The position numbers and the translations under genes are program-made. The notes beneath the pieces are model-generated. The model worked only from the letters and a program-made list of their open reading frames with translations. It ran no database searches and was not told where the DNA came from. This document shows positions 5,219 through 54,578 of a stretch of 64,000 bases of DNA, piece by piece. This DNA comes from an uncultured virus (IMG/VR IMGVR_UViG_3300005617_000177). Taxonomy: Duplodnaviria > Heunggongvirae > Uroviricota > Caudoviricetes. How positions within the stretch are numbered: the first letter of the stretch is position 1; each line of letters starts with the position of its first letter. The DNA is taken from IMG/VR virus record IMGVR_UViG_3300005617_000177, one strand, 5' to 3'.

Positions 5219-5237
5219 CCAGCGCCGTTGGAGCAAC

Positions 5238-6740
5238 TTGGCTCGACTAACTGCTTTAGAACGCCTCAATCGAGATTTCCGTGATGCTTACGGGTCTCGG
5301 GCCGTCTCGACCGCGCAAGGTCGTGCCGGATGGGATCGTGGACAATACGACCGGGCTTCGTCCTGGAAGGATATTTCCAACGTTCTCCGGCCGGATACCT
5401 CTATCACATATGAAGTTCCTAGCCGGGATATTGCTTTAGCCTACCTGGTTCAGGAAATGTATGCCGTCTGCTCTCCGTTTGCCCGGGCGATTAATCAAAT
5501 GGCTGGCGATGCCGGCCAGGATTCAATGGGCGATCACCAGCCCTATACGATCCTGGTCAACGAAAAGAATTCCAGAACCAAAGATAAAATAACCGAGATT
5601 CTAGATCGAGCTTATCGCATTACCCAAGTTGGACTTAACACAGAGATGCGTATTCGTCGTGCGTTAAAGACCGGTATGGCTATTGGTCAGCCGATATTTG
5701 AATACGACGGACTTCATTGGGATCTCGTCAGGGTTCAGTTGATGCCGACCTGGGAGATGATTCGGGATCCGAAACACAATACCTGGAAGCAAGTCAGAAA
5801 CTCTGGAGGGATGGGTAATCGCATTATCGGCGAATGGAATATTCCAAACTTCCTTGCAACCACAACAATCCTCGAGGACGACAACCAAATCTACGGGATG
5901 CCGATCGGCCAACTGGTCATTGCAGATTATCGCATGTTGGTATGGGCGATTGAGGATCTTGCTATCGCCGGCCGAACGCGCGCTCCGCGGCGATTGGTTC
6001 ATTACATCGGGTGGGAAAACAATCCAATCGTCATCGACGATGATCTTCTCAAAAAGTACAAGCAACGAAATTCTGTTGAGCCTACCACGATCTTGACCGA
6101 TCACTGGCTGAAGAAAGGCTTCGAAGAGATCGATCAGCTTGACGGAGATGCGTCGGGCGTCGAGGCCCTTCTCTTAATCGTCAAGGATCATACAGATCGT
6201 ATGAGGCGAGGTATCGGTATGTCGGCCGAGCCTTCAGATATGTCAGGTCGGGGATTGGAATCGGTCGACGCTGACTACGCCAGAGTCATCAACATTCTTC
6301 ACATGGCAGACTACAAGTTCCTGAAGAATATTGGTGATAAAGCCTTGCTGCTAAAGGGCTATACAGATGTCGACTACGCCGCCCTCATTCCGGCATTGGG
6401 TGAAACAGAAGCGAATAGATGGACAAGAGCTTCTGCTGCCCTGGAGCGCGGGCACATAGGTTACAGCCAATTCTGCGCCATAGTTGGATTGAAGCAGCCT
6501 GATGAAAATATGGCTGACATTGAGAAGTGGTTTGAATTCAGGAAGAAGCATGGAGTCCCACTGGTATTAGGGGACAAGGAGGATTCAGAACTGATAGGTG
6601 CATCCGGTGCGAAATCTACACGAACAGCGAAACAGGATGTGATAGGCACCGAATCGCCTGCCAAGGGCGCCGATCCACAAAAGGGTCGTACCCGTAGAGC
6701 CGAACAACGCCGGTCCGGAAAAACCCCATCTGGAGCTTAA
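5238..6740 (+). CDS. Portal protein (putative)
   Basis: 500 aa, immediately after TerL; TTG start with GGAG SD; size and synteny. Confidence 0.7.
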   Translation: MARLTALERLNRDFRDAYGSRAVSTAQGRAGWDRGQYDRASSWKDISNVLRPDTSITYEVPSRDIALAYLVQEMYAVCSPFARAINQMAGDAGQDSMGDHQPYTILVNEKNSRTKDKITEILDRAYRITQVGLNTEMRIRRALKTGMAIGQPIFEYDGLHWDLVRVQLMPTWEMIRDPKHNTWKQVRNSGGMGNRIIGEWNIPNFLATTTILEDDNQIYGMPIGQLVIADYRMLVWAIEDLAIAGRTRAPRRLVHYIGWENNPIVIDDDLLKKYKQRNSVEPTTILTDHWLKKGFEEIDQLDGDASGVEALLLIVKDHTDRMRRGIGMSAEPSDMSGRGLESVDADYARVINILHMADYKFLKNIGDKALLLKGYTDVDYAALIPALGETEANRWTRASAALERGHIGYSQFCAIVGLKQPDENMADIEKWFEFRKKHGVPLVLGDKEDSELIGASGAKSTRTAKQDVIGTESPAKGADPQKGRTRRAEQRRSGKTPSGA

Positions 6741-11263: not shown

Positions 11264-11292
11264 GGGCGGGCTCGCCGAGTCCGCCCTTTTTT
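11264..11292 (+). terminator. Intrinsic terminator after MCP
   Basis: GGGCGGGCTC-GCC-GAGTCCGCCC stem followed by T6. Confidence 0.85.
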
Positions 11293-11302
11293 GCGAGAAA
11301 AT

Positions 11303-11617
11303 ATGATTCAAGCTTATAGGTGTTCTGCCGGACACGAAACGGAAAGAATCTTTCTTCCCAAGGTGAATCCTACTCGTAAGCCTCTGACAATCGCTTGTCC
11401 TACATGCGGAGCCCGCGCCGTCCGAAGTCAGGGCTGCATAGGATTCGCAAAGCAGACATACGGCCGGAAGTACGGATTTGCTACCGACTCCGATCGTCGG
11501 GATTGGTTGAAGAAGCCTGGTATAGATGGGTGGGTCGGAAAAGAAGGCGAACCACCCAAGAAACCAAAGAGAGTGCACATTCCGCCGCCGCGTCCAAAGA
11601 GATTGAAGGTAGCGTAG
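11303..11617 (+). CDS. FmdB-like zinc-ribbon protein
   Basis: YRCSAGH...CPTCG motif; basic Pro-rich tail. Confidence 0.55.
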   Translation: MIQAYRCSAGHETERIFLPKVNPTRKPLTIACPTCGARAVRSQGCIGFAKQTYGRKYGFATDSDRRDWLKKPGIDGWVGKEGEPPKKPKRVHIPPPRPKRLKVA

Positions 11618-11620
11618 TTT

Positions 11621-12526
11621 ATGCTGTATCTATTGCCATCCGAACTCGATATATTCGCCAGACAGGTCATCACCCAGGATGCTCTGTCGACGGAATTGGG
11701 ACGTCAGGCGATGATACAGCAAGCTTCGAGCGGCGTAGACAGCGCCACAGGGCGTTCCGAATTCGGACTGGAAGTCAGGAACGTCATAGACGAACAGGTT
11801 AATCTCAGTCTCGCTCTGAGTGGGTATTTAAGTAACACTCCATTCATAGAATGGATAGGCTCATCTGCGACTCTGTTCTACTTTGGATACCCTGTTTCTG
11901 TTGGTACTCTCCTGCTTTCGGACTTTTCAGTCGAGAAGAAATCCGGCGTCATTCGAAATCTCACCCGGGTCAATCTCCAGGTTGGCGGTGAAAGTGGGTT
12001 GCGCTTCAGGGGTACGTCTCCTACGTTCCGACCTACGAGTCCATACGGAGTGGCAGGTCAAGCGGAAGAAGCGGCCAGCCCGTATCTCATGACCGTCAGC
12101 TATAAAGCCGGCTACTTCGCTGAGGCGTTAATCGATTCGTCTGGTGGGGTGAATGCAACCGAGATCATTGTCAATGATGTGACGAATCTCATGGTTGGTC
12201 ATGAGTTTTACTTCTCTGCTGACCCCGTGAATGAGCCTACAGTCGATCATCGGTTCATCACGGCAATCAACACAAGCACGCGCGCGGTATCCTTCACGCC
12301 TGCGGTCAAGTATGCTCTGGATGATACTATGACTCTCCGGCAGATTGATAAAGCGGTGCGTTCGGCGACGGCCGATATTATATCGGATTTGTTGACTTTT
12401 CCTCCCAACACAAGAGATTTTTCCAAATCCTTTGGAAGAGGCGACCTGTCAAAACGATGGGTGCGAATGAACGATCAGTTTATTCCGATGATTGCAGCCG
12501 CCAAGCTTAACCGATATGTGAGGTAG
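11621..12526 (+). CDS. Head-tail adaptor (putative)
   Basis: Position after MCP; N-terminal YLLPSEL, VSYKAGY and C-terminal KLNRY typical of adaptors. Confidence 0.55.
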   Translation: MLYLLPSELDIFARQVITQDALSTELGRQAMIQQASSGVDSATGRSEFGLEVRNVIDEQVNLSLALSGYLSNTPFIEWIGSSATLFYFGYPVSVGTLLLSDFSVEKKSGVIRNLTRVNLQVGGESGLRFRGTSPTFRPTSPYGVAGQAEEAASPYLMTVSYKAGYFAEALIDSSGGVNATEIIVNDVTNLMVGHEFYFSADPVNEPTVDHRFITAINTSTRAVSFTPAVKYALDDTMTLRQIDKAVRSATADIISDLLTFPPNTRDFSKSFGRGDLSKRWVRMNDQFIPMIAAAKLNRYVR

Positions 12527-12529
12527 GCT

Positions 12530-12946
12530 ATGCCTGAATCTGGTCCTGCTGCTCTTGCTGAATATAAAGAGCTTTTTCAGGAGCTAGGTACACCTGAAGG
12601 GATGGTTACGCTCAGGCGAATCCATCGTGCGGCGACTGCCTACGCCCCGGCCGTCTCTGATGAGATCCCTCTGTATAAAGTCCTGGTAGACGATTCAGAA
12701 GATCGGCAGTCATTTGGGCTGATGGTATCTGATAGGCGTGTATTTCGAATTTGGGGAGGCGCCATAAGTCCTACCGGCATTCTGGAAGTCACGGAGAGTT
12801 CCTTGAATCAGGCTCGCCTTGCCGGAGGCGGGGTTTTGGAAAATGGAATTCTCTTTAACCTGATGGAATTCCACCGCGGATTCTCCGTTGGTGGGATTGT
12901 GATGCAGTACTTTCTCCTGTGCGATTCGCTTAAACTGGTTTTGTAA
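12530..12946 (+). CDS. Head closure/neck protein (putative)
   Basis: 138 aa, synteny. Confidence 0.45.
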   Translation: MPESGPAALAEYKELFQELGTPEGMVTLRRIHRAATAYAPAVSDEIPLYKVLVDDSEDRQSFGLMVSDRRVFRIWGGAISPTGILEVTESSLNQARLAGGGVLENGILFNLMEFHRGFSVGGIVMQYFLLCDSLKLVL

Positions 12947-39571: not shown

Positions 39572-40391
39572 AGAACGGTGGATTCGCCGATCTTTAGAGC
39601 GCACTTGGAAGGTTTGCCAAACAGTGGTTATCTTCGATGATGGCTCGGAAGATAAAACACAGGAAGAAGCGTATGCAAGCTTTACTGTGAACCATACATT
39701 GCATACACGTTCTGGTGTTCGCATTTTCCAAGGCGAGTCAGAACGCGGTCCTTGCGAACTTCATTATATCCATTCACCTTTTACTCAAGCTGTTCGTCCT
39801 AAAGAACGTGTCAATGAGAACCGGGACAAGAACATCTTGAATTCGTACTGCAAAAGCACGATCGACTATGATTATGTTCTATGTTTAGATGGCGACGAGA
39901 TGCTCAGTAATTCCGCTGTCCGGCAATTCCCTGACGTCTGGAACTTCCTCGACAACCATTGCGACATCGTTGTTCTAACGTTTGTTTATCTGTGGGATGC
40001 AGAGAATCTAAGACGAGTCGACGGAATATACGGCCCACCAAGCGGTATTTCTCAGCTTCGATTCCCTCGAGTCTATACAATCAAGAGGCTTGAGGAATAT
40101 GATCTGTTCAATCTCAGCTTTGCTTGGGGAGGCGCAAGGGGTGGTGGCTTCCACTGTGGTTCTATTCCCACCCAAAACTTCACGACTTCATTGGGTGGCG
40201 CGTCCAAAACCATTGATGCTCCAGTAGTTCACTTCGGATACATCGACAATCCTCTCCGGCAAAGAAAGTATGTCTGGTACAACACTATAGATCCCGGTAA
40301 TGAACACGAAGGCTGTTACAGGCATATCATTGGCGAGGCAGATCAGTGGGCACCGGGACCAGTCGAACTTCAGCCCTGGGAAGATTCATGA
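39531..40391 (+). CDS. Glycosyltransferase family 2
   Basis: KNEERWI, DDGSEDKT, LDGDE, VVHFGY. Confidence 0.8.
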   Translation: MRERTVCQMRIKNEERWIRRSLERTWKVCQTVVIFDDGSEDKTQEEAYASFTVNHTLHTRSGVRIFQGESERGPCELHYIHSPFTQAVRPKERVNENRDKNILNSYCKSTIDYDYVLCLDGDEMLSNSAVRQFPDVWNFLDNHCDIVVLTFVYLWDAENLRRVDGIYGPPSGISQLRFPRVYTIKRLEEYDLFNLSFAWGGARGGGFHCGSIPTQNFTTSLGGASKTIDAPVVHFGYIDNPLRQRKYVWYNTIDPGNEHEGCYRHIIGEADQWAPGPVELQPWEDS

Positions 40392-41851
40392 TTTCTATAG
40401 TCATTCCTTCTTGCACAAACGAGCACCTTGCACGATTGTTGGAATCCATTGAGGTTAGCTCCCCTGGTCTTGGAACTTCCAAGATTCAACAAGTGATGGC
40501 CTCGCCAAATTATCGCGCAGTGTTCCCCTGGGTGTATAACGCGGTGCCTTCTATTGTCATAGGAGATAACGGTCTTTCAGATTCTTTTCGTGAAGAATAT
40601 GCTCCTAAAGGAATCTCTTTTGTCACTGTACATGAACCTTTCATCTTTGCTCGCGCGATAAATTCTTGCGTAGCAACCCTTCCTCCAGAACACGATATTC
40701 TTATTCTCAATGATGATGCGATCATAACCAGTCCTAATTTCGAAGAAGATCTTACCCGTCTCTTGTCCAAGCCGCGGACTCGGCGCTTCGGAATTGTCAG
40801 TCTTAAATTGAGCGGAGGCGTGGCCGGCAACAGGGAACAAATGGAAGATGTCGCAGCCGATGACATTGTATTGACTCGACGCACAGTTTGTTTCATTGCC
40901 GTAGTGATTCGCCGTGAAGTATGGAATCAAATAGGCGGCATGGATGAATCGTTTGTTGGGTATGGATTTGAGGACACAGATTATTGTCGCCGTGCCGTTA
41001 ATGCTGGTTGGCTCTTAGGTATTACAGGAGCGGCCTCTATCGAGCATGGGTTTGGAACTTCCGTGATGAGTAGCACGTTCAGACGAAAACATGGAACGGA
41101 TGGGCATTCTCACCTGTATATTCAAAACCATAACATCTTCAAAGATAAATGGGGCGAAGGGCCTCAGCTAGGAGATTACGAAACTATGCCTATAGTATGT
41201 GACGATAGCGAAGAACCTCTTAGCTCGGGGACTTCGTTTGGTCTCAAAGAACTAAGAAGCCGAGAGCAGTTTACAGCCCAAGCTCCTATGCCAGACAAGA
41301 CCCTCGGTCTTGAATCTGATCTCGAGGCTGATGCTGAATTGCTATGGGCGATTACAAGCCTTGTCAAACCTCAGACGCTTATTGAACTCGGCACTCGTGA
41401 GGGTGTGAGTACTCGTATTCTTGTACTGGCCGCACAACAAGCAAGAGAAGAAGCGAAGATCATAACTATTGATCCTGATTCAACCTGTGCAGACTTTATT
41501 CAAGATCTGGATTGTGAGTTCTATTCAATGAAAGCTGAAGACTTCCTTGCCGGCCTATCTCCGGAAAAGCGTGAAGCTCTCAAGGCGGATATGTTGTTCA
41601 TCGACACCGACCCGCACGACTACCAGCAGACTCTCATGTGGTTGAACACCTGGGTGTCAACCATGCTTCGTCCTGGTGGCTGCGCGCTGTTTCATGATGT
41701 GGTCAGCAATCGGCCGGAGATACAGGTACGCGCGGCCGTTGAGTCTTGGGTGCACGATCACACTGATTGGGAATGGATTGTGTTCCCGGTGCCGGAGAAG
41801 GAATACAAGTGGGCCCAAGGAGGTCTAGGACTTCTCTGGGCCCCAGAATAG
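40388..41851 (+). CDS. GT2 glycosyltransferase fused to class I SAM methyltransferase (Methyltransf_24-like)
   Basis: ISIVIP, ILNDD, GGMDESFVGYGFEDTDY; then IELGTREGVS, LFIDTDPHDY, LRPGG..FHD. Confidence 0.85.
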   Translation: MISIVIPSCTNEHLARLLESIEVSSPGLGTSKIQQVMASPNYRAVFPWVYNAVPSIVIGDNGLSDSFREEYAPKGISFVTVHEPFIFARAINSCVATLPPEHDILILNDDAIITSPNFEEDLTRLLSKPRTRRFGIVSLKLSGGVAGNREQMEDVAADDIVLTRRTVCFIAVVIRREVWNQIGGMDESFVGYGFEDTDYCRRAVNAGWLLGITGAASIEHGFGTSVMSSTFRRKHGTDGHSHLYIQNHNIFKDKWGEGPQLGDYETMPIVCDDSEEPLSSGTSFGLKELRSREQFTAQAPMPDKTLGLESDLEADAELLWAITSLVKPQTLIELGTREGVSTRILVLAAQQAREEAKIITIDPDSTCADFIQDLDCEFYSMKAEDFLAGLSPEKREALKADMLFIDTDPHDYQQTLMWLNTWVSTMLRPGGCALFHDVVSNRPEIQVRAAVESWVHDHTDWEWIVFPVPEKEYKWAQGGLGLLWAPE

Positions 41852-42175
41852 TTACAGCAAGGGTATGCCCCTAAAGAGTTTGCCATCGGCCGAGGGATGA
41901 ACCGCCAAAGCGGTCTTCTGATTTCCAATATCAGGTTCTACGAACGCTTCGCAAGTAATCCCTCGAAGCTTCAGTTCTTCTTCCCACAACAACAGATCGG
42001 CCTCAGTAACTCCTAGAAGCACGAGTGTTTGATGTTCTACTGCCCACTCTCGGATCTACGGATCGGTTCCGTGAATGAGCATAAGGTTAGCCAAAGCATG
42101 ACACGATTGGACCGCTCGCTGTGCGCAGGAAAGATCCTGTCGTACCAGGATAAAGAGCTTAAGCGGTCTTGGCAT
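41852..42175 (-). CDS. Pth2/PTRHD1-fold peptidyl-tRNA hydrolase-like protein with in-frame TAG at codon 40
   Basis: Hand translation: MPRPLKLFILVRQDLSCAQRAVQSCHALANLMLIHGTDP*IREWAVEHQTLVLLGVTEADLLLWEEELKLRGITCEAFVEPDIGNQKTALAVHPSADGKLFRGIPLL. GAGGT SD; TAG at 42056-42058. Confidence 0.8.
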
Positions 42176-42707
42176 TTTCACTTACCTCTTTGAAATGCTC
42201 GGACAGTTTCACCCATGTCTCTGTGTCGACAAACTTCTCAGGATGCTTCGTGAGGCGATTGTCTAACTTCCGGAGATATCGGTGGGCCGCACGGACGTGC
42301 GACTTCGGATTCTTGCCGGCGTGACAAAATATTCTCTGTGCATTGGCTGTATAGGGACGCAGTGATTGCGGTCCTAGAAGCAATTCAATCTGTTCGGAAT
42401 CTGGTACAGCATCATCGCTTAGCTTCAGTAGGACTCTTGCTGTAAGCAGCGCTGAGACTTGTCTCTTTTCATCCTGATAGCGCCTCCAGTCAGGATGTTT
42501 GGGTGAGATAGTCTCAACGACTTTTTCAGTTTCGACTTTGCTTGGGGTGTAGCTCGGGATTCTCGACTCGGTGACGGTCTTGCCATCAGGAGAAGTATAT
42601 ATGATCTTACTTTCCTTTTTGGTCTTCCGTGCGCCGACTTTGATTGAGAAGATCCGATCGGCGTGAACGCGGATCGCATGCTGGACTACTTGCGTAATTG
42701 TAACCAT
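42159..42707 (-). CDS. Basic hypothetical protein coupled to the Pth2-like gene
   Basis: 182 aa, AAGGAG SD, overlaps the Pth2-like start. Confidence 0.7.
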   Translation of the reverse strand: MVTITQVVQHAIRVHADRIFSIKVGARKTKKESKIIYTSPDGKTVTESRIPSYTPSKVETEKVVETISPKHPDWRRYQDEKRQVSALLTARVLLKLSDDAVPDSEQIELLLGPQSLRPYTANAQRIFCHAGKNPKSHVRAAHRYLRKLDNRLTKHPEKFVDTETWVKLSEHFKEVSENAKTA

Positions 42708-42761
42708 CGTTGTCTCCTTAGTTTCGAGTTAGTAGATTGAACCGAATAGACAGCGATGGGT

Positions 42762-42788
42762 TTACGGCGGTCGTTTGGTCTATAACAT
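42762..42788 (-). promoter_or_regulatory. Leader minigene ATG TTA TAG ACC AAA CGA CCG CCG TAA (M-L-amber-T-K-R-P-P)
   Basis: Strong SD (AAAGGAG) 6 nt upstream; ends in RPP-stop if TAG is read through. Confidence 0.7.
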
Positions 42789-42819
42789 CTGTCTCTCCTT
42801 TCAATCTAAGATCATACAA

Positions 42820-42892
42820 TACGTCGTTCGGGATTCGAACCCGAATCCAGGGTTTTAGAGACCCCGTGCTCTAACCATTGAGCTAACGACGC
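42820..42892 (-). tRNA. Amber suppressor tRNA (anticodon CUA), CCA not encoded
   Basis: Cloverleaf GCGTCGT-TA-GCTC-AATGGTTA-GAGC-A-CGGGGT-CTCTAAA-ACCCTG-GAT-TCGGG-TTCGAAT-CCCGA-ACGACGT-A; anticodon at 42856-42858. Confidence 0.9.
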
Positions 42893-42897
42893 ACAAC

Positions 42898-42985
42898 TGC
42901 GTGCGGCGAACCCGGTTGGGATAAGACTCGCAATCCCTGTCATCTAAGGCTCCGGTAGGTTATGCCATTCACCTAGCCGCACGCA
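42898..42985 (-). ncRNA. Structured small RNA or degenerate tRNA-like element
   Basis: Perfect 10-bp closing stem TGCGTGCGGC/GCCGCACGCA; D-arm-like TAGGT-GAATGGCATA-ACCTA; CCGG/CCGG and GGGAT/ATCCC stems. Confidence 0.55.
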
Positions 42986-42991
42986 TGCTCG

Positions 42992-43297
42992 TTACTTCTT
43001 GGCCGTTGCTGCTTTCTCGAGGACGCCGAGAATCTCTTCCTCTCGCAAGATCAGGAAGTCCGTGCCTTCGATCTTGATGTCGGCGCCGCCGTATTTGGCG
43101 AACAGCACGCGATCTCCTACCTTGACGTCGACCGGGACAACCACGCCCGATTCTGTCAAGAAGCCTTTGCCCACAGCTACAACTTCGCCTTGCTGTGGTT
43201 TCTCTTTTGCGTTGTCGGGAATATGAATCAGCCCGACCTGATCTGCCTGCTCAATCCTCCGGATCACTATCCGGTTTCCCAAGGGACGAATGTTCAT
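42992..43297 (-). CDS. groES: Co-chaperonin GroES
   Basis: IRPLGNRIVI, IPDNAKEKPQQGEVVAVG, VKVGDRVLFAKYGG, LILREEEILGV. Confidence 0.95.
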   Translation of the reverse strand: MNIRPLGNRIVIRRIEQADQVGLIHIPDNAKEKPQQGEVVAVGKGFLTESGVVVPVDVKVGDRVLFAKYGGADIKIEGTDFLILREEEILGVLEKAATAKK

Positions 43298-43433
43298 CTG
43301 GATCCTCCAAAACTTTCAAGTGGTAGTCGCCGATATGTTGCAGCCCACAGCGACAAGGGTAATTGTATCGCGCGGTCTTGAACATCGTATCTGTTATTGT
43401 ATTTTCACAAACCGCGCACTGCCAGACTTTCAT
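43251..43433 (-). CDS. Small Cys-rich hypothetical protein
   Basis: MKVWQCAVC...CRCG; ATGA overlap with the upstream gene. Confidence 0.5.
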   Translation of the reverse strand: MKVWQCAVCENTITDTMFKTARYNYPCRCGLQHIGDYHLKVLEDPDEHSSLGKPDSDPED

Positions 43434-43627
43434 TTGAAACCAAGTTTCTTCTGTACATGTGTCGGTGCGTGCCCTTGATGATAGAAGCCGCAATGAGGAC
43501 ATTTGTAGGCATTCACTTTGAGTCCGACTCGTCTGCTGGTTCTACCAGCTTTGATAAGTGCAGCTTCTTTTCCGAGTCTTTGCTTGCCGACACAAGCTTT
43601 GCGTCTCTTGCCTCTCTTGCTGGCCAT
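43430..43627 (-). CDS. Small zinc-finger-like phage protein
   Basis: CVGK...AYKCPHCGFYHQGH. Confidence 0.6.
   Translation of the reverse strand: MASKRGKRRKACVGKQRLGKEAALIKAGRTSRRVGLKVNAYKCPHCGFYHQGHAPTHVQKKLGFK
43436..43448. repeat. 13-bp quasi-palindrome, copy 3
   Basis: 2 nt before minus-strand ATG 43433. Confidence 0.7.
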
Positions 43628-43635
43628 ACCAGTCT

Positions 43636-43875
43636 CTACGCTCTCTGTCGAAGACTCTGGTAGCAGACAGCCCCGAACCCGTGCTTCTCTGCGGTTCTCT
43701 TTGCCGCCCTCACCGAACCATACTGCTTCTTGAGAATCGGATCAGGCACATCTTTCTGTCCCGCCAATCGGATACCTTTTGTCTTGGCGTTATTGATTGT
43801 TGTATCTGTAAGATTCTCTTTTGGATTCAGCCACACAGATCCTTTGCGGCCGACTACGACTAAGTATTTTGTCAT
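43636..43875 (-). CDS. Hypothetical protein
   Basis: 79 aa, GAGGG SD, ATGA overlap. Confidence 0.55.
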   Translation of the reverse strand: MTKYLVVVGRKGSVWLNPKENLTDTTINNAKTKGIRLAGQKDVPDPILKKQYGSVRAAKRTAEKHGFGAVCYQSLRQRA

Positions 43876-44231
43876 TTCTTTCCCTCAGTTAATTCATTGT
43901 AACGTTGCATAAGTTGATCGTGCAGCGACACCAGAGAAGGATGATCGGTGGATTGCAATCCTCGAATGGCATTAGCTAAAGATCCAGGATCGTCTCTATT
44001 ACAAGATAATGCCTGATCTCTTCTGATGCGATCATGCAAACTCATTGGCTCTCCATCTACAATGATTCCTTCTTTAGGCAGGGCTGCTTCGTCTGCAAGA
44101 ATATCATAGATCTTTTCTTTTGTGAGAAGATAAGCCTGTGCTGCACCCATCGCTGACTCCGCGCTTTCAGGATTTTTTCGAATCCGTTCTATTTGTTCAT
44201 CGAGCCAGAGCATGATTTTTTCGGGCATCAT
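43872..44231 (-). CDS. Hypothetical protein
   Basis: 119 aa, ATGA overlaps. Confidence 0.55.
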   Translation of the reverse strand: MMPEKIMLWLDEQIERIRKNPESAESAMGAAQAYLLTKEKIYDILADEAALPKEGIIVDGEPMSLHDRIRRDQALSCNRDDPGSLANAIRGLQSTDHPSLVSLHDQLMQRYNELTEGKK

Positions 44232-44899
44232 ATCAATTCACTCCAGTGAGAGACTTTGTATTTCTGACACAGATACGTGTTCATAAATTCCAAATCGTCA
44301 TGACCTTTGGCATCGGGAATGGAACGAACTGTCCCTCCCATTTCATGTTCAATTACCAGGTCTGGCACAACCATAAAACTCCAGCCGCGCTCTCTGGCGG
44401 CGAAGCAGAATTGAATATCCACGCCATAGCCTTTTAGATTTTCATCGAACCCGCCTACTTCCTTCCAGGCTTCTATGCTGACCAAGGGAGCGACCCAATC
44501 AATATGGCGCTCATACCGCGGTGCTCCGAAGCTCTGCTTCATTGATTGATGTGGTGTCGGAGTGACGGCCGGCGACACCGCCGCGAGCTTCGGAGAGGAT
44601 TTCAATGTAACCGCCAGCTTATTCAGCATGTCGAAACTCAGCCCTTTGACGTCGTTGTTCAACATGAATGCAGCCTTATACGCTTTGAGTCTTGGATGCT
44701 GCATTGCTTTGTTCACCGATTTGAGATACCCGACATTGGAAGGCCACCGTAGAATTTCAATGCCGGGTTCCTCAAATGGAATATCACTGCCGTCATCAAC
44801 AACAATGATATTGTTGCGAGGCTGATCTCGTAATTGTTGAAGCACACTACGAGTCAGATCCTCTCTCTGGTAATGAAAAATCAACGTCGCGATCCGCAT
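44228..44899 (-). CDS. Glycosyltransferase family 2
   Basis: VVDDGSD, MLNNDV, VGGFDENLKGYGVDIQF. Confidence 0.85.
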   Translation of the reverse strand: MRIATLIFHYQREDLTRSVLQQLRDQPRNNIIVVDDGSDIPFEEPGIEILRWPSNVGYLKSVNKAMQHPRLKAYKAAFMLNNDVKGLSFDMLNKLAVTLKSSPKLAAVSPAVTPTPHQSMKQSFGAPRYERHIDWVAPLVSIEAWKEVGGFDENLKGYGVDIQFCFAARERGWSFMVVPDLVIEHEMGGTVRSIPDAKGHDDLEFMNTYLCQKYKVSHWSELI

Positions 44900-45170
44900 A
44901 ATCCTTCACCGAATCTAGGAACTGATCCCGGTGCCGAAGATCGGCGAGAGTCGGCACAGAGAATATTTTATCCGAATGACAGAGCAAGCAACGTGGGCGC
45001 CGGCATCCTCGAGCCTTTGTCTTTCGAAACCGTCCTGCTTGAAAATCGCAGATACAATCTACTGGACGTTGCGGCCAGCCGTGAACTTGCTTTAAGTGAA
45101 TGCGATGCTCTCGCTGTGTTCGATTCCGTTCCTGGTGATACCTCTTCATAGCTACCAACTTTCCGGACAT
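44847..45170 (-). CDS. Small basic Cys-rich phage protein
   Basis: GRFRKTKARGCRRPRCLLCH; start uncertain. Confidence 0.5.
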   Translation of the reverse strand: MSGKLVAMKRYHQERNRTQREHRIHLKQVHGWPQRPVDCICDFQAGRFRKTKARGCRRPRCLLCHSDKIFSVPTLADLRHRDQFLDSVKDYADRDVDFSLPERGSDS

Positions 45171-47815: not shown

Positions 47816-49687
47816 CTAACCTCCCCAACTATCGGCTATTTTTGTTTCTGCTATGACAGGAACTTTCCAGATGTATTCCTTCATGCAGTTTACCATTTCT
47901 TTTTCTAGAATCACCGCCACTTCTGGCGCTGCTGCTTCATCACACTCCACTACGATTTCATCAAACGGGGACAATACAATCCTTGCCCAATAAGGCTTAT
48001 TCCAAAAGATTCTAGCCAGACGTCCTAATGCTTTCTTCGCTCCGCTCACTTCGAGCAATGCTGCTACAAAGTTGACGGCCTCTCCCTTTGGAACTGCCCC
48101 TTCCTTGAAGAGGGTAGCCCGACCACCGCGGACTTGGACTTTTCCTTCTCGTTCGGCTTTCTTGTGCTGAAGATTGTGATAGATCTTGACTCCACGGTAT
48201 CTCTTAAAATATCTCTTGATGAACAAATCACATTCTTCATAGGTCTTGTTGATACCGAGACCTTTCAGAAAGGTTTCTCGCAAGCGTTCTGGTCCGCATT
48301 CAAACGCCACAGCGAAGTTCGTTGTCTTGGCCAGGTATCTCTCTGCTTTACTGACTTGTGCTTCTGGCTTTCCAAGAATGACTTCTGCGGTCTGGCGATG
48401 AAGATCAAGACCATTGAGATAAGCCTTGAGCATGACAGGATCGCCTGATTCCTGTGCGATAGCTCTAAGCTGAAGCTGTGAATAGTCGCTTATGACAAAC
48501 TTGCGGCCGGGACCGGGCTTAAAGCAACTGCGGAAATCTCTCTTACTCCGCATGATCGAGTCTTCTTTTGGAACGCCGGGGCCGTAGCTGTCTGGCCTCT
48601 CAACGTTCAAAAGAATCGGCCGACTGGAAGCATAGCGATGTTGTGGGCTTCCTAATTGCCTGAAGTCTGAATGAATCCGTCCGGTAATTGAATCAATCGA
48701 CTCCCCAAATGCCTTAGCATGATCTGAGGCCGTCTTGAGCGATGCTCGATCAACGAATAGATCTACGAGTTCTGGATCCCGATCTCGGTATTTAAGCAGC
48801 ACTCCACCGGATGTAGTGTTCTTCTCGTATTGATCCTTGAGTTCAACACCCCATCGTTTCTTGAAGGCTTCCCATACCTGAACGTGACTTCCAAGGTTGA
48901 TTGCTTCGGCAGGCCCATCCGAGAATAGCGCCGGCTGCATATTGGAAAACTCAGGATATTTTCCAATCTTGACTGTTGCATCATGCCGCTTCTGATCTAT
49001 CTCGTCTTGTAATTCTTTGAGCAAGACTGGATCAGCATAAATCCCCTCGTATCCCATCAAGGCTGTTGCAAGGATACAAGAGTTCTCGGTCATGAACGCT
49101 TCATCCATGCCGTGGAACAGAATTCGTTCGACTAGAACATCAGCCAGTTCGTATAGCCACTCTACGTCTTGCGCTGCATACTCTAACTGTTCTTCAGTCA
49201 GAACTGGAGCATCCCAATTACTGACTTGCTGTTCTTTGGAGATCTTTATATTGCATTCGCGTTCAAGACAAGTTTGAAGAGTGAAGTCTCCCTTCTTAAT
49301 AGTCAGGGCGCCTTCATACTCTCTGAGTAGAAGGGCGGCAAGAAACAGATCGAGAGGATAGGATATGTAGACGCCAAAGTTGTGAATGACGAAGGTGGTA
49401 TCAAAGTCAGCGTTGAAGCACAGCTTCGCAATGTCGTAATTCATCAGAACGGACTTGAGCGGTCCGAAGTTCTGAATCTTAAAACAATCAATCAGGAAGG
49501 TGGTGCCGAGATCCTCGACGGCTATTTGCACTAAGCGCAACTTAGACCGCCGAGGATCTAACCCGGTTGTTTCTGTGTCGAAGCCGACAACCAGAGTCTT
49601 CTGGCTGATCTGCTTCTGCACGATCTGATCACAGCACTCGGCGAGCGCTGCATCAGATTCAATTAATTTCCGGGTTAGCTTAGGCAC
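47816..49687 (-). CDS. polA: Family A DNA polymerase (3'-5' exonuclease + polymerase), divergent
   Basis: Exo I DTETTG, Exo II NADFD, Exo III YAAQD; motif A DYSQLQLR, motif B RYLAKTTNF, motif C PFDE. Confidence 0.88.
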   Translation of the reverse strand: MPKLTRKLIESDAALAECCDQIVQKQISQKTLVVGFDTETTGLDPRRSKLRLVQIAVEDLGTTFLIDCFKIQNFGPLKSVLMNYDIAKLCFNADFDTTFVIHNFGVYISYPLDLFLAALLLREYEGALTIKKGDFTLQTCLERECNIKISKEQQVSNWDAPVLTEEQLEYAAQDVEWLYELADVLVERILFHGMDEAFMTENSCILATALMGYEGIYADPVLLKELQDEIDQKRHDATVKIGKYPEFSNMQPALFSDGPAEAINLGSHVQVWEAFKKRWGVELKDQYEKNTTSGGVLLKYRDRDPELVDLFVDRASLKTASDHAKAFGESIDSITGRIHSDFRQLGSPQHRYASSRPILLNVERPDSYGPGVPKEDSIMRSKRDFRSCFKPGPGRKFVISDYSQLQLRAIAQESGDPVMLKAYLNGLDLHRQTAEVILGKPEAQVSKAERYLAKTTNFAVAFECGPERLRETFLKGLGINKTYEECDLFIKRYFKRYRGVKIYHNLQHKKAEREGKVQVRGGRATLFKEGAVPKGEAVNFVAALLEVSGAKKALGRLARIFWNKPYWARIVLSPFDEIVVECDEAAAPEVAVILEKEMVNCMKEYIWKVPVIAETKIADSWGG

Positions 49688-52988: not shown

Positions 52989-54578
52989 CTATGAAAAGAA
53001 GGAATCATCTTCTGGTGGTGCGGCTTGTTGTGGTTGTTGTTCGCCATTAGGTCTAGCCTCTTCCAACGTCATGTAAGTCCCGTTGAATAGAAGAGGCACA
53101 TACCATCCCGCTCTGGTATTACGAGATCCTTCCACAGTCCAGCGACCGCGGCGTTGTGGGTTTAGCAATCTTACGAATGGATCCCGACCTGCGGCTTCGC
53201 AGTCAGGACAGATATTATTCACCGGACGTGAATCCCATCGTTCGACCTTGAAGGTCTTCAAAGAATTGCCGACCATGACTTCTCGGGCGATCTTTTGTTC
53301 CGGACAATCGCATTCGAATCGTTCGGGTTCCATACTAATCGTGGTTTTATACGTTGCATCTTTATTTGGCTGTTTGGATCCATAAGCGAATTGATTCGAT
53401 GCTGTTCCATAGATGCGTTGGAATCTGGCGCCTTCGTCGTTGTGTTGCACGACAACGATCATGCCGACATCGAGATAGTTGTATCTCAGACAAATATTAG
53501 CTAATTGCTTGCTGAAGTTCGAAAGTATCTCTTCTTGTTTTCCTTCGCCCTCAACCTTCTGAAAATAATCAATCAAGAATAGACGAACCCCGAATCGGCG
53601 AATGTACCGTTCGATAGTCGGAATAATCTCCCGCGCTGTATTGAGTTCATCGCAAATGTATAGAGGATCTTTGGCTATAGAGTCCCATACTTCCAAGGCC
53701 ATTCTTCGTTCGTATGGCGTCATACGATCGCGCGCACCAATGAGTTTGTTGAAAGGCACAGTCTCGCCAGAGTTCATGGAAATCCGTCGCATATTAATTA
53801 GATCGCGCGACATTTCCATACTGATGATCGCGGCGGGGTATCCGAATCTTGCTGATGCATTAACTAGACTCAAACCCAACTGACTTTTGCATTGTTTGTC
53901 GACGGCACCGATGACGATGTAATCGTTTCCCTTAATGCCGCCAGTTTCTTCATCGAACTGTGAAAATCCTGTAGGAATTCCTATGCGTTCATTGGAACTA
54001 AGGCGATTGATTCGATCTACCACTCTCTCATAGTCATCCATACCGCTGCGCCCTGGCATGTCTGACTGCATAGTCTCAGAACTGGAAACCGTTTCTGCTA
54101 GCTCGAGCAGAACATTCGCACTGGTCGTTGTGCCTTTGGCGAGATCTCCTACAAGCTTCTGCAACTTCTCATTCAGTACTCGCCGATTGGTTCGTTCCTT
54201 AACGATGATGGCTATCTCTGTAGCCGGCGCCGCGAAGACTTTATCGTCGGTTTCTCTAAAAGTGATCAGACCTTCCTTGACCTGAAAAGTCTTTGTGATC
54301 TTATAGAGTCCCTTTTCCCCTCCGATCTTTTCCAGAGCGTTTGTCGCACCAGGGCTGGACGTTCGCTCCAGTCTGTCACGCAGGGACATATAGGTAATAG
54401 TTTGTCCCTCTAAGAGTAGCGTTTCGGCCGCTGCAACGATGAGCCGCAAGCCTCCGTCATAGGACACGAAATCCTTGGAAGTGATGCGTTCCAGTATCAG
54501 GCGAGCGTTCTCTTCCCCTGACAGTAAGAATGCTATGGAAGCCAGTTCGGCTAATTCGTCTTGGATTTCGAAGTCCAT
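52989..54578 (-). CDS. dnaB: DnaB-like replicative helicase, divergent
   Basis: GIPTGFSQFDEETGG, Walker A variant GAVDKQCKS, SMEMS, LIDYFQ, VVQHN. Confidence 0.8.
   Translation of the reverse strand: MDFEIQDELAELASIAFLLSGEENARLILERITSKDFVSYDGGLRLIVAAAETLLLEGQTITYMSLRDRLERTSSPGATNALEKIGGEKGLYKITKTFQVKEGLITFRETDDKVFAAPATEIAIIVKERTNRRVLNEKLQKLVGDLAKGTTTSANVLLELAETVSSSETMQSDMPGRSGMDDYERVVDRINRLSSNERIGIPTGFSQFDEETGGIKGNDYIVIGAVDKQCKSQLGLSLVNASARFGYPAAIISMEMSRDLINMRRISMNSGETVPFNKLIGARDRMTPYERRMALEVWDSIAKDPLYICDELNTAREIIPTIERYIRRFGVRLFLIDYFQKVEGEGKQEEILSNFSKQLANICLRYNYLDVGMIVVVQHNDEGARFQRIYGTASNQFAYGSKQPNKDATYKTTISMEPERFECDCPEQKIAREVMVGNSLKTFKVERWDSRPVNNICPDCEAAGRDPFVRLLNPQRRGRWTVEGSRNTRAGWYVPLLFNGTYMTLEEARPNGEQQPQQAAPPEDDSFFS

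Follow-up and report, generated by a model that had tools for sequence, protein, structure and literature searches.

A suppressor tRNA and a stop-interrupted Pth2-like hydrolase gene as a probable translational circuit in phages that use the standard genetic code

We report that a putative suppressor tRNA is paired with a stop-bearing gene for a predicted Pth2-fold hydrolase in dozens of unrelated phages, among them a soil phage, the uncultured virus (IMG/VR IMGVR_UViG_3300005617_000177) from which the stretch of 64,000 nucleotides analyzed here, referred to as the window, is derived. Synthesis of the Pth2-fold enzyme very probably depends on the phage's own suppressor tRNA, which was the core inference of the original prediction for this DNA. 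Gating of this kind is well supported because the cognate stop is found in 56 of 67 related loci, the stop and the anticodon covary, and the genomes involved use the standard code. Many non-recoded phages have suppressor tRNAs of unclear purpose, and a conserved, position-specific stop would provide a concrete client for them.

All five elements named in the original prediction (a small RNA, a tRNA, a leader, a 182-aa ORF and a Pth2 gene with an internal TAG) were found where it had placed them. As functional parts, the leader and the structured RNA are unsupported by the comparisons described below. The elements and their context are as follows.

42992-43297, minus strand: groES (Cpn10), PF00166 E 6e-29, directly upstream, given as context
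42894-42985, minus strand: spacer between groES and the tRNA, with a three-way fold by MFE prediction
42819-42893, minus strand: suppressor tRNA(CUA), from ARAGORN and Rfam RF00005
42795-42800, minus strand: SD sequence AAGGAG of the mini-ORF, 6 nt upstream of its ATG
42762-42788, minus strand: mini-ORF M-L-TAG-T-K-R-P-P-TAA, read from the sequence
42159-42707, minus strand: 182-aa ORF, from the ORF list, no Pfam family
41852-42175, minus strand: gene for a Pth2-fold hydrolase, 107 codons, from its translation and a PF01981 match across the TAG
42056-42058, minus strand: the predicted gating TAG, codon 40 of the Pth2-like gene, in the context CCG TAG ATC

The module and groES probably belong to the same transcription unit, and the Pth2-like gene lies at the far end of an arm that starts with replication genes. 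A blastn search (distant setting) with positions 41000-45000 gave no match among GenBank phages. Our scans are consistent with the claim that the only internal TAGs are those near the suppressor tRNA. The possibility that these TAGs are sequencing errors had been raised with the prediction. They are not errors of a single assembly, as both recur in assemblies of other rhizosphere samples: contigs of runs X2 and X3 include both, with no difference at the TAG of the Pth2-like gene, contigs of X4 additionally confirm the leader TAG, and the tRNA is unchanged in contigs of X2 and X4, all of this being evidence from contigs, not raw reads, of depth 2-4 from one habitat and year. A contig of run X1 covers the entire stretch, and X1 may be the source sample. 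No RNA run was found to contain the stretch.

Analysis of the minus-strand frame 42175-41852 showed a single in-frame TAG, at codon 40, and a match to Pfam PTH2 (PF01981) that runs across this codon (residues 5-97; E 3.9e-7; 30.7 bits, with a cut-off of 23). A profile of 44 homologues matched the solved Pth2 structure 2zv3 over its full length (E 1.8e-12). The AlphaFold2 model of the read-through protein is a single Pth2 domain (pLDDT 97.8, pTM 0.90), for which the top 11 Foldseek matches were all Pth2/Bit1 entries (TM 0.74-0.81), and in this model the TAG position falls in a predicted loop between helix 17-35 and helix 42-48. The catalytic residues of Pth2 are the Asp of an 'RDAG' stretch and the Lys of a Gly-Lys loop. 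In the phage family, the column of the Asp aligns to a nearly invariant Glu80 and the Gly-Lys loop is represented by a two-residue gap, and the substrate may therefore differ from that of Pth2.

Substitutions were compared among six of the seven loci with a mid-gene stop, L017 being set aside. Over the 30 codons that precede the TAG, 14 divergent comparisons gave pS values of 0.64-1.03, i.e., saturated silent sites, and pN values of 0.18-0.32, and the near-identical pair L019/L025 gave a pS of 0.05 and a pN of 0.01; dN/dS is mostly not computable at this saturation, and the part after the stop, at 15 codons, is too short for stable values. By these comparisons, both halves of the gene appear to be under selection at the protein level. 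Among the top 150 cluster representatives, 12 or more begin immediately past the TAG column. Where the stop is present, 'peptidyl tRNA hydrolase' genes of phages are mis-annotated; gene callers report only their C-terminal fragments.

The tRNA with anticodon CTA is the sole tRNA that ARAGORN found in the window. It has a canonical cloverleaf and an anticodon complementary to the stop, does not encode CCA, and scores 62 bits against the Rfam tRNA model (gathering score 29), with model positions 1-71 of 71 matched. The nearest non-suppressor tRNAs among 150 phage tRNAs compared are all ~70% identical and of mixed isotypes, which makes them uninformative about the amino acid carried. A theta (minimal HDV-like) ribozyme has been described at the 3' end of phage suppressor tRNAs, with its G1 at most 5 nt from the tRNA 3' end (Kienbeck et al. 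preprint). In the window, the sequence 3' of the tRNA begins TTGTATG, and a search of 42650-43050 with Rfam models, which differ from the descriptor used by the theta authors, gave no ribozyme or other Rfam family beyond the tRNA at E<=10.

The 67 related loci consist of the window, 9 viral contigs and 57 metagenome contigs. The search used an 8-sequence alignment (A2), a 29-sequence alignment (A1) being too diverse, and the sample was drawn with a single peptide motif, F[VT]EPD[IM][GD][DNF][QK], so that it covers only part of the family. A scan of viral contigs with a single protein gave no relatives, and a weak, unrelated-looking locus (L001) from a scan with P0002 was dropped from all counts. 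Apart from the 56 interrupted frames, eight were intact and three were cut by contig ends. The stop lies at the loop column of the window in 12 loci (the window and 11 others), and in 44 it forms a 'head' of ATG, 1-17 codons and the stop, with no start codon after the stop; one extra locus, from genome contigs, combines the head form with a tRNA-CUA. Exactly ATG, one codon and the stop make up 21 of 36 heads compared. A purine directly follows the stop in 45 of 46 cases, a preference that is confounded by the conserved Ile or Val codon that comes next.

Heads of this type might need no tRNA at all if they were start-stop uORFs with re-initiation at the next codon (ATT, ATA, GTT or GTA), the gene of the window then being either split or a pseudogene. 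In 17 of the 36 heads the stop is followed by ATT, which bacteria rarely use as a start, and in Xanthomonas phage XacN1 and Mycobacterium phage Cane17 a canonical start comes soon after ATG-(AAG)-TAG. However, GTT or GTA occupies this position in 14 of the 36 heads, and to our knowledge neither is a start codon. Re-initiation would also leave unexplained the tracking of the stop by the anticodon (no mismatch in 26 pairs, see below) and the mid-gene TAG of 12 loci in which both halves are conserved. Furthermore, the N-terminal 39 residues hold Q23, H26 and A27, which are invariant in the family, and a C-terminal fragment alone, missing this part, would lack half of the predicted fold. We consider re-initiation to be very improbable.

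The flanks of the interrupted genes tie the stop to the tRNA. Of the 46 interrupted genes left after dereplication, 26 have a suppressor tRNA within the flank retrieved, invariably on the gene's own strand and at a distance of 94-1712 nt. Such a tRNA is present in 13 of the 18 cases whose flanks are 1.4 kb or longer on each side. The stop and anticodon pairs are 24 TAG/CUA and 2 TAA/UUA, with no mismatches; a change from CUA to UUA in the neighboring anticodon is accompanied by a change of the stop from TAG to TAA. The two UUA tRNAs come from separate tRNA lineages, in each of which they have CUA sisters, and the TAA heads require at least three changes on the protein tree. The expectation that internal TAGs co-occur with a CUA tRNA is thus borne out by the 24 pairs, but not by five loci with ~3 kb on both sides (L012, L027, L035, L046 and L062), in which ARAGORN, with introns included, found no suppressor tRNA. 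One of these, L012, is the closest relative of the window. In the five loci the tRNA may lie further away or the genes may be dead. Rfam likewise found no suppressor tRNA in 13 loci without one. Linkage without gating was also observed, as intact Pth2-like genes lie beside a tRNA-CUA in L018, L022, L032 and phage Cane17. The homologues in Aeromonas T4-like phages and Stenotrophomonas RAS14 are intact or fused, and no tRNA lies within 4 kb of them.

Tight linkage even to an intact gene would be expected if the hydrolase acted on the suppressor's own aminoacyl- or peptidyl-tRNA and, by negative feedback, kept read-through of terminators low. Unchecked suppression should be costly because the cognate stop serves as a real terminator (TAG for 21 of 71 ORFs in the window; TAA for 49 of 59 in the related contig G005), and a product that needs the tRNA has a topology suited to autoregulation. 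Release factor 2 regulates itself via an in-frame stop, and Pth2-related DTD2 enzymes deacylate aminoacyl-tRNA. On the other hand, the linked suppressor tRNAs comprise 30 distinct sequences in several unrelated sequence families, against one enzyme family, which means that specific recognition would have re-evolved repeatedly, and we know of no Pth enzyme that is tRNA-specific. Such feedback is unlikely in our judgment.

The statement that the phage is not globally recoded was confirmed by stop counts, ORF cover and individual genes. The 71 ORFs of the window end in TAA (29), TGA (21) or TAG (21), and TAG terminates both PolA (47816-49687) and a DnaB-like helicase (52989-54578). Reading TAG, TGA or TAA as sense gave no rise in ORF cover in the window (0.943 under code 11 and 0.956 with TAG as sense) or in the related contigs G003, G005 and G001 (200 kb of the latter), which also use the standard code. 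Of the features of a code-15-like genome, the window has a phage-encoded suppressor tRNA (tRNA-CUA at 42819-42893); a low code 11 density that recovers with TAG as sense is absent from the window, G003, G005 and G001, and TAG, at 21 of 71 stops, is not the rare terminator, placed within many genes, that a recoded stop would be. In G005, TAA is by far the main terminator, yet the contig has a tRNA-UUA and a TAA-gated gene. A back-up stop comes no sooner after TAG-ended genes than after others, the medians being noisy.

These data bear on incipient or neutral recoding, in which stops would drift into any tolerant gene once a suppressor is present and the Pth2-like gene would merely be the nearest or the most tolerant. 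Standard-code phages with suppressor tRNAs are known (Borges et al., bioRxiv 10.1101/2021.08.26.457843), the stops lie at positions that tolerate any residue, and a second ORF is gated in the L019-type loci. However, drift should hit many genes, and the Pth2-like gene is the only recognizable head-gated gene in G001 (200 kb) and G005 (41 kb). Other heads of ATG, up to 10 codons and a stop in the four genomes were mostly junk frames, with TAG not in excess over TGA/TAA controls, and neither TAG nor TAA is depleted as a terminator in the window, G003, G005 and G001. The stop is kept in 24/24 members of the largest clade and across clades that are ~35% identical, while silent sites are saturated, and the two stop positions and at least three TAG-to-TAA switches all fall in the same gene. 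Neutral recoding therefore appears quite improbable.

Among the neighboring elements, the 182-aa gene is a conserved companion of the Pth2-like gene within the window's clade, as tblastn places relatives directly upstream of the Pth2-like gene in L012, L014, L016, L019, L021, L023, L025 and L026. Its product has no Pfam family, one marginal PHROG match and no usable Atlas match. The mini-ORF (ATG TTA TAG ACC AAA CGA CCG CCG TAA; 8 codons, TAG at codon 3) is in frame with the 182-aa ORF but separated from it by two TAA codons, and may be a remnant or an analogue of a head gate. The original prediction counted the leader ending in RPP among the parts of the module. No RPP-ending counterpart was found in L012, L015 or the L019-type loci; the nearest analogue is an SD and ATG ACA TAG that head a real 117-aa ORF at the same place in L019, L021 and L023, and the region from the leader to the gene folds no better than shuffled sequences (z -0.5). 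A leader-peptide attenuator based on the mini-ORF is not supported, with no conserved peptide or alternative RNA structure in these loci.

The spacer at 42894-42985, designated a structured small RNA in the prediction, is at most a candidate RNA element and is not conserved. Its MFE of -36.2 kcal/mol is a modest fold advantage (z -1.95; 9 of 200 shuffles fold as well), it has no Rfam match at E<=10, and no sequence like it was found upstream of the tRNA in L015 or L019. The only variant of the spacer in other samples, T>C at 42960, changes a predicted U-A pair to U-G. Pfam searches of 91 neighboring ORFs from 14 loci identified homing endonucleases, methylases, RtcB and NAPRTase, and no third conserved partner.

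Altogether, we favor a two-part translational circuit as the best overall explanation and regard it as reasonably probable. The phage CUA tRNA would be needed to read the single UAG of the adjacent Pth2-family gene, and full-length enzyme would be made only once the tRNA has been transcribed, processed and charged, with a yield roughly proportional to the success of the tRNA against release factor 1. The stop is predicted to lie in a surface loop or, for most relatives, ahead of the first strand and 1-17 codons past the ATG, so that the identity of the inserted residue would be immaterial and only the yield would be controlled. The enzyme might then be a general peptidyl-tRNA hydrolase that clears the by-products of suppression, e.g., peptidyl-tRNA dropped by ribosomes that have moved past real stops of host and phage genes, and an enzyme dose tied to suppressor activity would constitute a feed-forward safeguard. 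We place this clean-up role at a little below an even chance. The prediction offered a timer, or a sensor of host tRNA-targeting defense or of release-factor status, as possible roles. A sensor with this layout would supply the rescue enzyme only while the tRNA is intact, the reverse of what is required for rescue from tRNA cleavage.

A stop of this kind might instead be a pure timer that only delays the enzyme until the tRNA matures, as the code-switch model proposes for the late genes of recoded phages (Borges et al., 10.1101/2021.08.26.457843), and the location of the gene at the far end of its arm would fit such a delay. However, the tRNA lies 0.1-1.7 kb from the gene, with which it shares a strand and probably a transcript, so that the delay would be short, and a timer would not explain the repeated choice of one gene family. 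We give it very little credence. As an extension of the circuit, and more tentatively than the clean-up role, the tRNA and the hydrolase may together act as an autonomous read-through controller in the infected cell. In many standard-code phages, from soil, lakes, the sea and huge-phage lineages, a tRNA whose one conserved client is the Pth2-family hydrolase would force ribosomes through the stops of host and phage genes, among them UAA, which is the commonest. The hydrolase, itself made only by such read-through, would limit the read-through or clear its debris.

If the controller reading is true, it would supply the first defined target for the 'orphan' suppressor tRNAs of XacN1, pT24 and the cluster C mycobacteriophages, and it would represent a natural, tunable nonsense-suppression circuit. 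Gating itself would mean that TAA is suppressed in phages whose genes mostly end in TAA. The circuit is simple and testable in cultured systems, i.e., pT24 and, for linkage, the cluster C mycobacteriophages, and a tRNA with a gated gene that has a tolerant insertion site may serve engineered nonsense suppression.

In the searchable literature we found no described Pth2-like gene gated by a suppressor tRNA, and to that extent the claim that no system with this layout has been described holds. The prfB gene, encoding release factor 2, is autoregulated via an in-frame UGA. Like the gene studied here, it is a translation-factor gene with an early in-frame stop, and its synthesis reports termination versus its alternative; it differs in that prfB responds to its own product and bypasses the stop by a +1 frameshift, whereas the bypass here would be by a dedicated, putative tRNA. 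The bar minigenes of phage lambda are free-standing two-codon ORFs that are toxic to pth-defective hosts. The heads described here share with them the form of ATG, one codon and a stop and a tie to peptidyl-tRNA hydrolase biology, but are joined in frame to the hydrolase gene instead of standing alone.

Among cultured phages, Tenacibaculum phage pT24 has, judging from its sequence, the same design: its GenBank CDS begins within the domain, past an ATG AAA TAG, and the annotation places a tRNA-Sup 2.6 kb upstream. Phage XacN1 resembles the window in that it uses the standard code and carries CUA tRNAs together with a homologue, ORF364, which has an SD and ATG AAG TAG four codons before its annotated ATG; given the normal start that comes next, this is no more than a possible head. 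In the available text on XacN1, the authors state that no target gene was found for its CUA suppressor tRNAs (PMC5852040). The PTH2 genes of jumbo phages, for which peptide release from tRNA in ribosome rescue was proposed (Iyer et al. 2021, PMC7824862), and the 'peptidyl tRNA hydrolase' of cluster C mycobacteriophages (GenBank) belong to the same family and fold and often lie among phage tRNA genes. Suppressor tRNAs and stop codons, the features of the gated gene here, have no occurrence in the available text of Iyer et al. (PMC7824862).

Recoded phages with their own suppressor tRNAs (TAG -> Gln, TGA -> Trp) were described by Borges et al. (bioRxiv 10.1101/2021.08.26.457843), whose available text also includes standard-code phages that acquired suppressor tRNAs, 'potentially preceding code change'. 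There, as would be the case here, a phage suppressor tRNA reads in-frame stops, and the stop is a post-transcriptional gate on chosen genes. In the same text, TAG and TGA are the only reassignments given and the word 'hydrolase' is absent, whereas TAA is paired with UUA in the loci studied here. According to that text, recoding in such phages affects late and lysis genes in the dozens to hundreds, code 11 density collapses, and the recoded stop becomes a rare terminator. The window, in contrast, uses the standard code, ends 21 of its 71 ORFs in TAG, and appears to gate one conserved client, the Pth2-like gene.

The module lies on the minus strand of the window in the order that the original prediction had claimed, with the tRNA, the mini-ORF, the 182-aa ORF and the Pth2-like frame all present as stated.

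42992-43297, minus strand: groES (PF00166 match)
Between groES and the tRNA, minus strand: spacer of 92 nt
42819-42893, minus strand: tRNA with anticodon CUA, the sole tRNA of the window
42788-42762, minus strand: mini-ORF ATG TTA TAG ACC AAA CGA CCG CCG TAA, preceded by an SD
42159-42707, minus strand: 182-aa ORF
42175-41852, minus strand: Pth2-like frame of 107 codons, TAG being codon 40

The TAG of the Pth2-like gene was unchanged in contigs of other rhizosphere samples (sequencing runs X2 and X3), as was that of the leader, the RPP-ending mini-ORF (X2, X3 and X4), and a T>C at 42960 (plus strand) was the sole variant over the 1.2 kb of the module among the four samples compared. Because the X1-X4 contigs are of low depth and come from a single habitat and year, and X1 is possibly the source sample, this cross-sample support for the TAGs is real but modest. 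The T>C change turns a U-A pair of the predicted spacer fold into U-G. The window is a two-armed piece of phage genome, with structural genes on the plus strand and replication genes and the module on the minus strand; at the convergence point of both arms, the TAG of a 501-aa ORF combining glycosyltransferase and methyltransferase domains (40346-41851, plus strand) abuts the TAA of the Pth2-like gene on the opposite strand.

When the Pth2-like frame was translated across its TAG, Pfam PTH2 spanned residues 5-97, on both sides of the stop (30.7 bits; cut-off 23), and a profile of 44 homologues matched solved Pth2 structures (2zv3, E 1.8e-12). The AlphaFold2 model of this read-through protein had a pLDDT of 97.8, its best Foldseek matches were Pth2/Bit1 entries (TM up to 0.81), and codon 40 falls in it between helix 17-35 and helix 42-48. 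That column is occupied by Q, A, L, V, R, S, N, T or G in intact homologues, so any residue inserted at codon 40 should be tolerated. In the profile alignment, the Asp regarded as catalytic in Pth2 aligns with a nearly invariant Glu in the phage family, from which the Gly-Lys loop of Pth2 is missing; the chemistry of the phage enzyme is probably similar to that of Pth2, and its substrate may differ. The closest database protein (P0002, 80 aa) begins one column past the TAG, and among the best 150 of 657 cluster representatives, eight start at query positions 41-44 and four at 51-53. Such late starts are what gene callers yield given a stop at position 40, and they gave a first hint that the stop may not be private to this phage.

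A scan of viral contigs with an eight-sequence alignment of relatives (A2), in which C-terminal parts were aligned, returned nine loci. In all nine, the Pth2-like frame was interrupted by an in-frame stop and a same-strand suppressor tRNA lay 0.15-1.4 kb off; in one of them (L002) a TAA stop is paired with the anticodon UUA. A scan of metagenome contigs returned 57 loci, each with one frame matching an HMM built from 91 full-length homologues. With the window, these made up 67 classified loci.

Classes of Pth2-like frame
Mid, 12 of 67 loci: TAG at the loop column of the window; motif HG.[DE][PT]-TAG-[VI].[EDK]W
Head, 44 of 67 loci: ATG, 1-17 codons, stop, then [IV]KLV...; no ATG, GTG or TTG past the stop; TAG in 40, TAA in 4
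Intact, 8 of 67 loci: without in-frame stop
Cut, 3 of 67 loci: ended by contig edges

Removal of identical proteins left 55 rows, 46 of them interrupted. The original prediction had suggested checking whether internal TAGs co-occur with a CUA tRNA. A suppressor tRNA was found in the fetched flank of 26 of the 46 interrupted genes, with 24 TAG/CUA pairs, two TAA/UUA pairs and no mismatch. Where each flank extended for 1.4 kb or more, the tRNA was present in 13 of 18 loci, the five interrupted loci without it being L012, L027, L035, L046 and L062. Three of the eight intact genes (L018, L022 and L032) also have a tRNA-CUA 0.4-1.4 kb away, and a search of genome contigs returned one locus, on a contig binned with a Patescibacteria MAG, with ATG ACN TAG plus a tRNA-CUA. 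Re-initiation, which would need no tRNA, fits these data less well and seems highly improbable. A purine directly after the stop favours suppression, and one was present in 45 of the 46 cases, a count confounded with the conserved Ile/Val encoded next. Of 36 heads, 21 have a Lys codon (AAG or AAA) before the stop and nine a Thr codon.

L012, the nearest relative of the window, has the gated gene pair and no tRNA within 3 kb; by eye, its flanks hold an aldehyde-dehydrogenase-like ORF (82-1389) and a tyrosine-recombinase-like ORF, taken for an integrase (5047-5676), and the locus is possibly a prophage remnant. L046 has a group I intron (3863-4130; Rfam, 105 bits) 0.7 kb past its head-gated Pth2-like gene.

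By sequence, the UUA tRNAs of L002 and L029 come from two separate tRNA families, both of which include CUA sisters (L003/L042 in one, L052/L005 in the other), which argues that the anticodon and the stop, from TAG to TAA, changed together at least twice. In the protein tree, which has few alignment columns, some long branches and an unsure deep order, TAA heads require at least three changes, at least three deep clades contain head stops, and the mid TAG sits within a clade with intact basal members and one reversion (L016). Over the 30 codons preceding the mid TAG, pS was 0.64-1.03 (saturated) and pN 0.18-0.32 in six of seven mid-type loci; L017 was out of register owing to an indel, and the near-identical L019/L025 (pS 0.05, pN 0.01) were uninformative. 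Saturated silent sites with a low pN indicate that the N-terminal piece has been kept under protein-level selection and that the stop has outlived every silent site.

The genome had been claimed not to be globally recoded, and this was borne out. Under code 11, ORF cover of the window was 95.8% in a greedy ORF set ending in TAA 29, TGA 21 and TAG 21 times, and cover was not raised by reading a stop as sense (0.943 under code 11; 0.956 for TAG, 0.930 for TGA and 0.950 for TAA). TAG terminates PolA (47816-49687) and the DnaB-like helicase (52989-54578), among others. The longer related contigs G003 (132 kb, mid type), G005 (41 kb, TAA type) and G001 (328 kb, head type; first 200 kb counted) had code 11 cover of 0.894, 0.833 and 0.873, respectively, with no jump under any stop-as-sense code; TAG terminates 37 of 163 ORFs in G003, and TAA 49 of 59 in G005. 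These relatives are likewise standard-code, and the distinct sequences found in each include a single suppressor tRNA, within 1 kb of the Pth2-like gene. Neutral drift towards recoding fits the data less well, and we regard it as unlikely.

A crude scan for other head-gated ORFs showed no TAG excess and no further recognisable gene in G001 or G005. L019, L021 and L023 have a second gated gene, which shares an operon with the mid-gated Pth2-like gene: directly after the tRNA-CUA come a strong SD, GAGGAGG, and ATG ACA TAG GTA heading a 117-aa ORF (L019 208-561). Elsewhere in the window (11291-12946, plus strand), three successive ORFs of 108, 301 and 138 aa share one frame, with only TAG plus one codon in each gap before the next ATG; an amber suppressor could read them as fusion proteins, an arrangement that by rough estimate may be due to chance.

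Of the five-part module originally proposed, the 182-aa partner proved to be conserved, and the RPP leader and the upstream structured RNA were without counterparts in the relatives checked. Eight loci have a relative of the 182-aa gene immediately upstream of their Pth2-like gene, and the 182-aa gene is a real, conserved partner within the clade of the window; no recognisable family was found in Pfam, PHROG or Atlas. The mini-ORF shares a frame with this gene, with two TAA codons between, and had no counterpart in L012, L015 and L019-type loci and no significant fold. Its form (ATG, one codon, TAG) recurs in the L019-type ORF, and ATG, one codon and a stop make up 21 of the 36 heads, so the mini-ORF may represent a remnant or else a small decoy. 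Between groES and the tRNA, the spacer has a marginal fold, with nothing in Rfam and no visible counterpart in L015 or L019.

Head stops were also found in named phages.

Pth2-like genes with a head stop in named phages
Tenacibaculum phage pT24 (cultured): head ATG AAA TAG before the domain; annotated tRNA-Sup 2.6 kb upstream
LR756500 and LR756501 (huge phages): head TAG; tRNA-CUA within 3 kb
LR756502, LR756504 and LR745206 (huge phages): head TAG; no suppressor tRNA within 3 kb

In pT24 (LC168164.1; L093, 2950-3900), the deposited CDS BPT24_235 begins within the Pth2-like domain and its frame extends upstream to the amber head, so that the gated N-terminus is probably missing from the annotation; the product, annotated with 272 aa, reaches well past the domain. 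The 735-kb phage LR756501.1 has two in-frame TAGs, at the head and at the loop position of the window (L092 2980-3300), and two adjoining tRNA-CUA genes 2.1 kb downstream of the Pth2-like gene (L092 5421-5574). The authors of Xanthomonas phage XacN1 could find no target for its two CUA tRNAs (PMC5852040). ORF364 of XacN1 contains a Pth2-like domain, and its annotated ATG is preceded in frame, at a distance of four codons, by an amber head (SD plus ATG AAG TAG; L011 2430-2470: AGAGGA, then ATG AAG TAG ACC ATT AAA GCG ATG AAG TTG); this gate is ambiguous. Mycobacterium phage Cane17 (L095 11977-12679), one record of 202 such, has a 'peptidyl tRNA hydrolase' and, 250 nt later, a 'tRNA-OTHER' read as CUA by ARAGORN; the annotated start, a GTG with an SD of its own, comes directly after ATG TAG. 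Linkage is present here and gating unclear. In Aeromonas phages CC2 and phiWae14 and Stenotrophomonas phage RAS14, the homologues are intact or fused, with no tRNA less than 4 kb away.

From these sequences, it is very likely that the hydrolase can be translated only past a stop that the linked tRNA alone can read. Hydrolase yield would then follow the contest between charged suppressor and release factor at the stop codon. As to what the enzyme does, we tentatively favor general peptidyl-tRNA clean-up, dosed by suppressor activity, because the linked tRNAs belong to several unrelated families, as against one enzyme family, and because a part in ribosome rescue has been put forward before for phage PTH2 (Iyer et al., PMC7824862). 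The main rival is a governor that trims the charged form of its own suppressor, which would make particular sense for the UAA-reading versions and which we consider rather improbable; a pure timer fits the data less well and has very little to recommend it.

The original prediction knew of no described system with this layout, and this holds for the openly accessible main texts searched: none deals with the gating of a Pth2-type gene by a suppressor tRNA of a phage, nor did a search for suppressor tRNAs in Bxz1-type mycobacteriophages bring one up. The word 'hydrolase' is absent from the Borges preprint (bioRxiv 10.1101/2021.08.26.457843) and 'suppressor' from Iyer et al.; neither word occurs in Al-Shayeb et al. 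Suppressor-tRNA gating in phages is already a known kind of system, to which the present analysis contributes the mid-gene form of the stop, the covariation of TAA with UUA, code checks on whole contigs, and named and cultured examples.
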